Shown here piece after piece: positions 57,201 to 60,200 of a stretch of 64,000 nt of DNA (position 1 is its first letter; each line of letters begins with the position of its first letter). The position numbers are program-made. Source of the DNA: Alphaproteobacteria bacterium (lineage in GTDB: Bacteria > Pseudomonadota > Alphaproteobacteria > Rs-D84 > CASDRH01); contig JAOASE010000006.1 in the NCBI GenBank assembly GCA_025210155.1, positions 170,939 through 234,938 on the forward strand, in the 5' to 3' direction.

Positions 57201-60200
57201 AAGTTCTTTGATAAGAATTTGTCCATATCCTTTTTTTCTGAATGGATTTTCAACTTCTATATATAATATTTCGTAAAAATTATCTATATTTAGGAAACTT
57301 AGAGTTCCTACTATTCTTTTGTTTACGATAATTTCCCAATCTATTTGAGCTTTTTTTGTTTTATGTTTTTTTAATTGCATAGTGAGGTCTTATGTATAGG
57401 GCTTTTAATTCAACAGGTTTTATGTTTTTTTGTTTATTTAAGAAATCATTAAGCAAGTTTATGTTGATATTTTTTTGATTCCATATTTGAATGTTTTGAT
57501 TGCTTAGATTCAATTCAACATTACTTAGGATTATTGTGTTTTCGTATTGTTGTAATAAGTTTTCTATTTCATCGAAGGTATATTCATAGGTATTTGTAAT
57601 GGGATTTTTTTCTTTTGAAAAAAGTTGAATGAAATAATTGTTTTTCTTTCCTGAATCTATAGCGCATAAAATGTAATCACAATTTTTTATTTCTGTTGTG
57701 TTTAACATGTATTCGAATGTTGTTAGTGATTTTAAAGGTATGTTTTTAGCAACGGAAATTCCTTTGGCTAGAGATAGTCCGATTCTTATAGAAGTAAATG
57801 ATCCTGGTCCAATTATACATGATATATTTTTAATATCTTTATTTTTTGCAGCCTCTATTGATAGTGGTAAAATTTTGCCTATTTGATCTTTTCCACTATC
57901 TAAAAATAGATCAGTATTTTCACTGCTATTTTTTGTTAAATATGATATTGATGGCTTATTTATAACCGTATTTATAAGAAGTGTGTTGCTCATAAAATGC
58001 CTTTACTCTTAGTTGGAATTATAGTATAATCTTATTTGAGAGCTTAAGAAAAAGCAAGGGAGAAATGTTATGCAAAAAGAATTCTTGTTTCCTCATAATT
58101 TACCATTAAATGATAAAGATGTTCCAGCAATGTTTGAAAAAGTTTTTGAAATTGCTTCTGAGCCTATGATAATTTTAGATCAGGTTGGTAAGATAGTTTC
58201 TGTTAATCCTTCTTTTTATGAAACGATAGGTTATAATTTAGAAAGTGTTCTAAGGAAAAATATTTCATTTTTATTTTCTGGTTTTCCAGATGGTAATGGT
58301 ATAAATGCTTATGAAAAATTTTTAGATGAATTGATTAGAACTGGTTACTGGCATAATAAAATAGTTGGTAGAAAAAAATCTGGTGGAGTGGTTCATTTTG
58401 ATGCTAGATTTCTTGAGATAAAAGATGAGAGAGAATATGGCAAATATTATGTTGGAGTTTTATCGTCAATATCTAATTTTTTCCATAGAGAAGGGGTGGA
58501 ATATAATCCTCTTAGGGATAGTTTGACTAGCGCTTATAATGTTCATGCATTTTCTGAATTTATGGAAAGAACTTTGTTGAGAGCTAAAGAGGGTGAAGCA
58601 GATTTGTCACTTCTTGTTTTGAATGTAGATAGATTTTCTGAGTTTAATGAAAAGTATGGGCTGATAGAGGGGGATAAGGTTCTTTGTTCTGTCGCAGATG
58701 TACTTAGAAAGAATTCTTCTAAAATTGACTATGTTGCAAGGCTTAAAGATGATAATTTTGGTTTAGTAATTTCAAGCAAACATTCTCAGCCTCAACTAGA
58801 GAAAATGATTAATGCAATATTTGTGGATTTATGTGAAAAGGATTTGTTTGGAGATAAAATTGCAGACTTATCATTCTCAATAGGAGTTGCTTGTCATCCA
58901 AATTCTGGAGAAGATGTTTCTGAACTGATTAAATCTTCTGTTAGAGCAATGAAGGTTGCTAAAAATAATGGTGGTAATCAAGTGGTTTATAATAAGTACT
59001 TATAAACATGATTTTTATAAAAAAATATAAAGCTCCTTAGAAGGAGCTTTTTGTATTATAATTCTTTTTTGCTTTCCCATGTGCCGTGTAGGTTGCAGTG
59101 TTCTCTAGCTATAATAGTTTTAGTTCCTGCTGGAATTTTAAATTCTACTATAGGTTGGTCGTTAGGCTTAAGATTTTTTCTTTCAATCTTTCCATCAGCT
59201 TCTAGCTCAACCCATTCTATTAAATGAGCTTCACTCATAGGGTGAATTATTTCCCCTACTTGAACTATGATAGTTTCGCCTTTAACTTTTATTACTGGTT
59301 CGTGTTTTTCAATAGACATGACTAAAATCCTTCGTTTTGTTACTTTATTATATATTAGGTGTGAAAAACTACCATTTCAAGTATTAAAATATTTTTTGAA
59401 TGAGATTATCGTTTAAGTTTGTTGATTTTTTCTTTTAAGCTCTTCCAAAAATTCATTCTTTTAATAATATCTTTTTCAAAACCCCTGTCGTTTGGTCTAT
59501 AGAATTCTATTGGTTTGAAGTTTTCTGGCCAGCAGTTTTGTCCTGAAAAGGCATGAGGGTAGTCGTGATCGTATTTATAATTTTCACCATATCCTAAATC
59601 AGCCATCATTTTTGTTGGGGAGTTTAGAATGTTTTTAGGAGGTACTGTGTTATTACTTCTTTTTGTTTCGACTAGTAGTTCGTTTCTAGCAACATAATTT
59701 GCATTTGATTTAGGGGCGTTTGCTAAGTAAATAACTAATTGAGTTAAACACATAGTTCCTTCTTTATCTCCTAATCTTTCATATGCTTGCCAGCATGATA
59801 TGGCTTGGGTTATTGCATTTGGATCAGCTAATCCAATATCTTCGGTTGCGAAAGTTGTTAATCTTCTGAATAGATATTTTGGATCTTGTCCGCTAGTTAT
59901 CATTCTGCCAGTCCAGTATAAAGCTGCATTAACATCAGAGGATCTTAGAGATTTGTGAACTGCTGATATTATGTTGTAATGCTCATCTCCAGCTTTGTCT
60001 CCTAGAGGAGCTTTCTTTTGAATCTGTTTTATTAATTCTTCTCGATTCAACGGGTTTTTAGGCTTGATATGAGATAGAAATTCTACCTGATTTAAAGTGA
60101 ATCTAGCGTCCCCGTTTGCTAGGGATGCTAGAGTGTCGTATGCATCATTTTCAAGTGGAAGCTTTTTATCTAATTTTTTCTCAGCCCTTTTAATTAGTTC

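Follow-up and report, generated by a model that had tools for sequence, protein, structure and literature searches.

Can a protein of only 87 residues be a complete superoxide reductase (SOR), and if so, what has made it so small? The question is posed by a 64,000-nucleotide stretch of an alphaproteobacterial contig (JAOASE010000006.1, positions 170,939 to 234,938; hereafter the window). Here, an open reading frame (ORF) at 59056..59319 on the minus strand, which we call sor, starts with ATG and translates to MSIEKHEPVIKVKGETIIVQVGEIIHPMSEAHLIEWVELEADGKIERKNLKPNDQPIVEFKIPAGTKTIIAREHCNLHGTWESKKEL. The first-pass annotation had proposed the same ORF, and our translation is identical to the one it gave. 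Judged from sequence comparison and a predicted fold, we consider it very likely that sor encodes a functional cytoplasmic one-iron SOR, which consists of the catalytic centre-II domain only and descends from a desulfoferrodoxin (Dfx) that lost its desulforedoxin domain. An identical protein is deposited at NCBI as MCT4552564.1 and annotated 'MAG: desulfoferrodoxin family protein [Alphaproteobacteria bacterium]'. SOR-family identity is therefore already in public automatic annotation, which limits the novelty of the assignment. What we add is the correct reason for the small size, the purifying selection acting on the gene, and the recurrence of such mini-SORs in small genomes, often beside peroxiredoxins.

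Predicted iron site, fold and size of the sor product

At the level of sequence, the similarity of the sor product to superoxide reductases is far beyond chance. The profile of the desulfoferrodoxin iron-binding family, PF01880, is matched nearly end to end (profile positions 7-97 of 98; E = 2.3e-19). The score of 70.2 bits exceeds the gathering threshold of 22.2, and the protein has no further domain. The best solved relative is the D. desulfuricans desulfoferrodoxin 1dfx (E = 7.6e-20, 46% identity). Taken together, 1dfx, 2ji1, 1vzg and 1y07 align to query residues 3-83 with E = 1e-20 to 1e-15 and one indel of 2 residues. The one-iron SORs (1Fe-SORs) reach only E = 1e-7 to 1e-4, at 27-34% identity.

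The alignment shows four putative equatorial histidines (His6, His26, His32 and His78) and a putative axial Cys75 at the ferrous-iron-binding positions of solved desulfoferrodoxins, where they correspond to H48, H68, H74, H118 and C115 of 1dfx. This is the ligand set that had been read from the ORF at the outset, and the codons of its last two members can be read directly in the DNA (minus strand throughout): 'gtg' at 59086-59088, reverse complement CAC, for His78, and 'gca' at 59095-59097, reverse complement TGC, for Cys75. Both belong to the Cys75-Asn76-Leu77-His78 codons at 59086..59097, aligned to CNLH 115-118 of 1dfx. The second and third histidine ligands are encoded in the HPMSEAH stretch at 59224..59244, and the first in the Glu4-Lys5-His6 codons at 59302..59310, which align to E-K-H at 1dfx residues 46-48. 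The protein contains a single cysteine, and 5 residues precede the first centre-II ligand.

An alignment of 58 homologues is invariant at K5, H6, P8, G22, H26, H32, C75, H78, G79 and W81, while P27 and M28 are conserved in at least 90% of the sequences. E4-K5-H6 also aligns with the EKH of 2ji1, so that the catalytic lysine and the glutamate of the ferric state are retained. According to Pinto et al. 2010, as cited in PMC3116461, this glutamate is a ligand of the resting ferric iron and the lysine is catalytic.

An AlphaFold2 model built on the 58-sequence alignment has a predicted local distance difference test score (pLDDT) of 93.2 and a predicted template modelling score (pTM) of 0.84, and shows the sor product as a predicted seven-stranded immunoglobulin-like β-sandwich with every element present. 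In Foldseek, the model superposes on solved SORs with template modelling (TM) scores of 0.84-0.88 and root-mean-square deviations (rmsd) of 1.4-2.2 Å. TM is 0.88 and rmsd 2.1-2.2 Å for 1dfx, 1vzg and 2ji1, and the T. pallidum SOR 1y07 superposes at 1.4 Å over 80 residues with 41% identity. Sequence, profile, fold and conservation all agree with the initial description of a small SOR that retains all five ligands of an Fe(His)4Cys site.

Why, then, is the protein so short? The first-pass annotation had ascribed this to the loss of most of a middle β-hairpin, and here it was mistaken. Residues 3-83 correspond to 1dfx 45-123 with the single 2-residue indel, and this near-gapless alignment, together with the seven strands of the model, leads us to reject an internal hairpin deletion. 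The D. baarsii SOR and the T. pallidum SOR align to the sor product in the same near-gapless manner. The sor product thus corresponds to the whole centre-II domain of a 2Fe-SOR (Dfx). The part it lacks is the first ~44 residues of Dfx, which comprise the linker and the desulforedoxin domain that houses the Fe(Cys)4 centre I. Accordingly, the Dfx equivalog profile TIGR00320 (dfx_rbo) is matched at positions 46-124 only, scoring 86.4 bits where the cut-off is 146.9.

The protein had also been described as 25-35 residues shorter than the 110-125 residues of typical one-domain SORs. It is indeed short, and with 87 residues falls below every SOR chain in our search of the PDB (N. equitans, 109 residues; Giardia, 111 residues). 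The comparison set behind that figure, however, consists of 1Fe-SORs, which carry an N-terminal extension and longer loops. Query residues 4-87 align to 17-111 of Giardia 4d7p and residues 4-86 to 23-122 of 2hvb, and in a pairwise alignment with a 1Fe-type protein the indels are scattered over several loops. Compact loops are the usual condition in all Dfx-type centre-II domains and are not a deletion in the sor product. The short length thus has two causes: there is no N-terminal desulforedoxin domain or linker, and the Dfx-type centre II is 11-17 residues more compact than that of 1Fe-SORs.

Integrity of the gene and its bare-domain relatives

A short ORF whose closest relatives are longer might be a truncated or mis-called gene. 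The stop codon of the upstream rarA lies 86 bp from the sor ATG, and no desulforedoxin-like coding sequence is present in any frame of this 86-bp spacer. We reject a hidden upstream domain or a mis-called start, as the spacer has stops in all three frames and offers neither a cysteine motif nor another start. In the frame of sor, 19 codons can be read upstream of the ATG before a stop is reached, and none of them is a cysteine or start codon. A Shine-Dalgarno-like GAAGGA can be read in the DNA at 59328..59333 (minus strand), 8 nt before the ATG; on this strand, positions 59339 to 59320 read CAAAACGAAGGATTTTAGTC and run straight into the ATG. A weak sigma-70-like promoter candidate (TTGAAA, 17-nt spacer, TAATAT) lies in the rarA-sor spacer at 59352..59380 on the same strand, although such sites number 8 in the region against 7.7 expected from shuffled sequence. 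Transcription of sor may start at its own promoter or come by read-through from rarA. Downstream, a bidirectional hairpin terminator with a 9-bp stem and T-runs on both strands (59029..59050) separates sor from the convergent PAS-GGDEF gene; terminator-like sites were found 3 times against 1.1 expected.

A sister lineage (Logan SRR13663708, locus L004) carries an 87-residue SOR of the same length, with the same start and 91% identity, in the same gene order as the window (AhpC - Pif1 - RarA - SOR - PAS-GGDEF). Between the two lineages the synonymous divergence (dS) of sor is 0.79 and the ratio of nonsynonymous to synonymous divergence (dN/dS) is 0.063. The four neighbours (rarA, Pif1, AhpC and GGDEF) give dN/dS values of 0.03 to 0.09. 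The substitution pattern indicates that sor is under purifying selection, and sor is an intact, maintained gene. Its GC content (34.5%) is close to that of rarA (34.9%), so a recent horizontal transfer visible by composition is rejected. The genes for SORs are described as having spread by lateral transfer regardless of phylogeny (PMC3116461). The present gene was probably acquired laterally by this small-genome lineage, at a time remote enough that its base composition now resembles that of its neighbours.

How widespread is this architecture? A word-indexed protein search with the single sequence returned only 2 relatives, while a three-sequence profile reached more; an exhaustive search of 1.84 billion representatives yielded 1494. 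The nearest full-length homologues are 124-126 residues long, share 56-58% identity with the sor product and combine PF06397 with PF01880. Since these nearest homologues have two domains and the characterised 1Fe-SORs are far more distant, the comparison points to a two-domain Dfx minus domain I as the origin of sor, a polarity that we infer.

We counted a protein as bare-domain if its first His ligand falls among the first ~11 residues. Among the ~240 nearest single-domain-sized relatives listed, true bare-domain forms make up only a handful. Besides the window clade itself they are P0126 (94 residues), P0247 (89 residues) and P0245 (87 residues), the last of which has degenerate ligands. P0126 alone clusters with the window clade in a neighbour-joining (NJ) tree, which is itself weak. 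Genome scans added two SOR-only proteins that are bounded by an upstream stop, one of 98 residues (L011) in a metagenome-assembled genome with a 947-kb contig and one of 92 residues (L023) in a Patescibacteria metagenome-assembled genome. A further SOR-only protein of 99 residues (P0002) belongs to a UGA-recoded genome. Like the sor product, P0126, P0247, L023, L011 and P0002 contain PF01880 only, keep intact ligands and have at most 10 residues before the first histidine (12 in P0002), but they share just 40-52% identity with it and come from unrelated small-genome organisms. The bare centre-II architecture is thus rare yet recurrent, and tends toward small genomes.

Some care is needed in tallying 'short SORs' from automatic gene calls, as two Dfx genes in Desulfurococcales metagenome-assembled genomes illustrate (L008:2485-2871 and L009:3918-4301). 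In both, the open frame that precedes the first canonical start codon encodes an intact desulforedoxin domain; probably, translation begins at a non-canonical codon or the genes were mis-called short.

The relatives also include proteins of 700-3000 residues with 4-11 tandem SOR-like domains (P0111-P0116, P0121, P0123, P0146, P0201, P0218, P0232 and P0244). P0111 (1163 residues) begins with a hydrophobic leader and ends in a hydrophobic tail, and its repeats keep SHVP...VPHEM..THWIT...EHCN[KL]HGVW, in which the ligands follow the order His/His/His/Cys/His. These giants may be secreted or surface 'poly-SOR' proteins.

Probable mechanism, electron supply and rival readings

The mechanism of SORs is established (Pinto et al. 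2010, as cited in PMC3116461; summarised in PMC7280497), and the retained residues suggest how the sor product would work. Superoxide would bind the open sixth (axial) site of Fe2+(His)4(Cys) and take up one electron, giving a ferric-(hydro)peroxo intermediate. Lys5 would assist the protonation of this intermediate, upon which H2O2 would be released, and Glu4 would then cap the sixth site of the resting Fe3+. An external reductant would restore Fe2+. The H2O2 would probably be cleared by an AhpC/TSA peroxiredoxin encoded 2.8 kb away.

As there is neither a centre I nor a nearby rubredoxin, electrons would most likely reach centre II directly, be it from a ferredoxin, from a flavoprotein reductase or from a rubredoxin whose gene lies elsewhere. 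The loci of other short SORs offer some guidance. In L011 (6896-10273), genes for NifS, NifU, a 61-residue CxxC...CxxC protein weakly similar to rubredoxin, a ferritin-like protein and AhpC (a 2-Cys peroxiredoxin) are followed by the 98-residue SOR. In the P0002 loci (L005:9195-10300, L006:266-2336 and L007), AhpC is followed by a 109-residue Fer2-type ORF (PF00111, 24.6 bits against 21) and then by the 99-residue SOR, with a rubrerythrin/VIT1 fusion after the SOR in L006. The genome of P0002 reads UGA as sense, as seen from four in-frame TGA codons at conserved positions. Pairing of an SOR with a peroxiredoxin is plausible because it recurs in these two unrelated lineages, and by analogy the Fer2-type neighbour suggests that ferredoxin-type donors may serve mini-SORs.

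The same loci bear on a rather doubtful alternative, a split system in which a stand-alone desulforedoxin or rubredoxin, with its gene at another place in the genome, takes over the role of centre I in trans. Such a system would still resemble a 2Fe-SOR in its electron flow, and would alter the electron path only. Rubredoxin is the usual proximal donor of both SOR classes (PMC7280497), the rubredoxin-like protein of L011 is encoded three genes upstream of its SOR, and the Fer2-type ORF of L005-L007 stands immediately upstream of theirs. However, a six-frame scan of the window found no ORF with a rubredoxin or desulforedoxin cysteine pattern, as CxxC...CxxC occurs only in the zinc finger of ClpX, in a ComF-type protein and in a single spurious frame. 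The Pfam-annotated flanks contain nothing of this kind either.

Two further readings question whether sor encodes an SOR at all. As a decaying remnant, sor would be a 5'-truncated pseudogene of a two-domain desulfoferrodoxin that kept its ATG by chance. The product is indeed shorter than all biochemically characterised SORs, its closest relatives have two domains, and the genome is reduced and AT-rich, a setting in which gene decay is common. Nevertheless, this reading is extremely improbable: the ligands and catalytic residues are all intact, dN/dS is as low as 0.06 at a dS of 0.79, and the sister gene has the same length and start. In addition, the gene has a good Shine-Dalgarno sequence and a terminator, the upstream region has neither coding room nor desulforedoxin homology, and the bare-domain architecture has also arisen in other lineages. 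The truncation that the first-pass annotation had allowed for is thus not borne out. It is also improbable, if somewhat less so, that the SOR fold has been re-purposed and, though still binding iron, serves chiefly in another role, for example as an iron- or redox-sensing partner of the PAS-GGDEF protein or as a reductase of other small oxidants. The convergent arrangement with the PAS and degenerate GGDEF gene is kept in the sister lineage, neither the window nor the 10 kb to its left yielded an electron donor, and SOR-like domains do occur in very different architectures such as the giant tandem proteins. Yet the Glu-Lys-His and Cys-Asn-Leu-His motifs, which are specific to superoxide catalysis, are fully kept. 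The two genes converge on a terminator and are therefore not co-transcribed, and other short SORs lie beside genes for peroxiredoxins, ferritin-like proteins and rubrerythrin, the classic oxidative-stress partners.

We thus favour a functional centre-II-only SOR, against which the following points have to be set. The neelaredoxin-type profile TIGR00332 (neela_ferrous) was narrowly missed, with 60.8 against 61.9 bits. The Fe(His)4Cys geometry was judged indirectly, through the global superposition and the ligand alignment. The polarity of desulforedoxin loss rests on nearest-neighbour similarity, and the NJ tree, built on 81 columns, does not resolve a single from multiple origins of the short forms. 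Finally, our search for partners, which covered the 64 kb of the window and 10 kb to its left (~8% of a genome that measures 1.05 Mb or more), found no gene for a rubredoxin, a ferredoxin or a dedicated reductase. Genes for superoxide dismutase (SOD), rubrerythrin or flavodiiron proteins are likewise absent from the Pfam context of this region.

The surroundings of sor had been taken as a small oxidative-stress locus. In the window, the gene for a PAS protein with a degenerate GGDEF domain (plus strand) is followed by the terminator, sor and rarA (both minus), a Pif1-type helicase gene and the AhpC/TSA-family peroxiredoxin gene (both plus). The gene rarA encodes a replication-associated ATPase. 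The PAS-GGDEF, rarA and peroxiredoxin genes are thus indeed nearby. However, the peroxiredoxin gene (62161..62655; PF00578, E = 9.4e-36), whose position is conserved in L004, lies two genes off on the opposite strand, beyond rarA and the helicase gene, and is separately transcribed, while sor has its own Shine-Dalgarno sequence and terminator. To speak of an oxidative-stress locus therefore overstates the case, and there is no demonstrated link between the GGDEF protein and the SOR. Most sor genes sit amid functionally unrelated genes, consistent with lateral transfer (SORGOdb, PMC3116461).

The PAS-GGDEF protein (58070-59005, plus strand) has '...ARLKDDNFG...' in place of GG(D/E)EF and probably lacks active diguanylate cyclase function, as far as this motif indicates; it is 89% identical to its counterpart in the sister lineage, at low dN/dS. 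The Pif1-type helicase, of superfamily 1B (SF1B) and 421 residues, is encoded at 60832-62097 on the plus strand between rarA and the peroxiredoxin gene, and is conserved in the sister lineage; such helicases are uncommon in reduced alphaproteobacterial genomes. Further right, the gene for a RhuM-family virulence protein (~63160-64000, plus strand; PF13310, E = 4.9e-30) runs off the end of the window. Public contigs break near this end, and Logan contigs from several samples stop just short of the RhuM-family ORF, which suggests a variable or mobile region.

What does sor say about its host? The window has a GC content of 29% and carries dnaA-dnaN, virB3/virB4, peptidoglycan and lipopolysaccharide-transport genes; the contig that encodes MCT4552564.1 measures 1,048,500 bp. 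The lineage is an isolated one, since homologues of its MnmG include one sister at 84% identity and all others reach at most 57%. The earlier description of the host as 'intracellular-type' is plausible, and has as its basis the GC content, virB3/virB4, the contig of ~1.05 Mb and the NCBI label 'Alphaproteobacteria bacterium'. SOR is not mentioned in the papers on Hepatincolaceae and Holosporales that were consulted. An SOR instead of, or besides, SOD would suggest a low-oxygen life, because SOR removes superoxide without making O2.

More tentatively, and with the balance still against it, bare centre-II mini-SORs of 87-99 residues might be a recurrent end-point of genome reduction, in which the desulforedoxin domain of Dfx was repeatedly deleted and the remaining domain works in a two-gene module with a peroxiredoxin, taking electrons from generic donors such as a 2Fe-2S ferredoxin in place of rubredoxin. 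This would cover the present alphaproteobacterial lineage, Patescibacteria, the UGA-recoded lineage and other genomes of ~1 Mb. If true, the sor product would be roughly the smallest superoxide-detoxifying enzyme known from nature, and sor would mark a micro-oxic or anaerobic host niche for the symbiont.

Comparison with known superoxide reductases

Among the known classes, the sor product is most similar to the 2Fe-SORs (Dfx, Rbo; 1dfx and 2ji1; TIGR00320). Their centre II is the closest both in sequence, where identity is 46% for 1dfx and as high as 58% for metagenomic Dfx, and in structure, with a TM score of 0.88. The length of centre II, the EKH...HPMxExH...CNLHG motifs and the compact loops are shared as well. 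In contrast to them, the sor product has neither the CxxC...CC motif of the Fe(Cys)4 centre I nor the linker, and is predicted to bind one iron instead of two.

The 1Fe-SORs or neelaredoxins (P. furiosus 1do6, A. fulgidus 4bff, Giardia 4d7p and N. equitans 6gq8) likewise have centre II only, with the same ligands, and the sor product presumably shares their chemistry. They differ in an N-terminal extension of 12-28 residues and 11-17 extra loop residues, which bring them to 109-125 residues against 87. Characterised 1Fe-SORs are homotetramers. SORGOdb places proteins with centre II only and no extra domain in its 'Class II-related SOR' group (PMC3116461), and the architecture of the sor product fits this description.

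The class III SOR of T. pallidum (1y07) provides a further parallel. It belongs to the Dfx lineage, works via centre II alone and gave the best local superposition, but its N-terminal domain is kept in a metal-free form, whereas the sor product has no such domain altogether. Centre I is reportedly dispensable for detoxification (Emerson et al. 2003, as cited in 10.1101/2024.09.17.613384), and the T. pallidum SOR works naturally without it, so that the loss of domain I need not conflict with activity. Dfx-type proteins with a self-sufficient centre II, described in 2007 work as cited in PMC3116461, provide the functional premise for a minimal form; as described there, they keep the N-terminal polypeptide, whereas the sor product would be a natural deletion down to the bare domain.

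If the sor product is active, a Dfx centre-II sandwich of ~80 residues would be self-sufficient in nature, and would make an attractive minimal scaffold for mechanistic work and engineering. The current view of SOR chemistry is left unchanged by this finding. Taken together, the sor product is a compact member of the known SOR family and no novel type of system.

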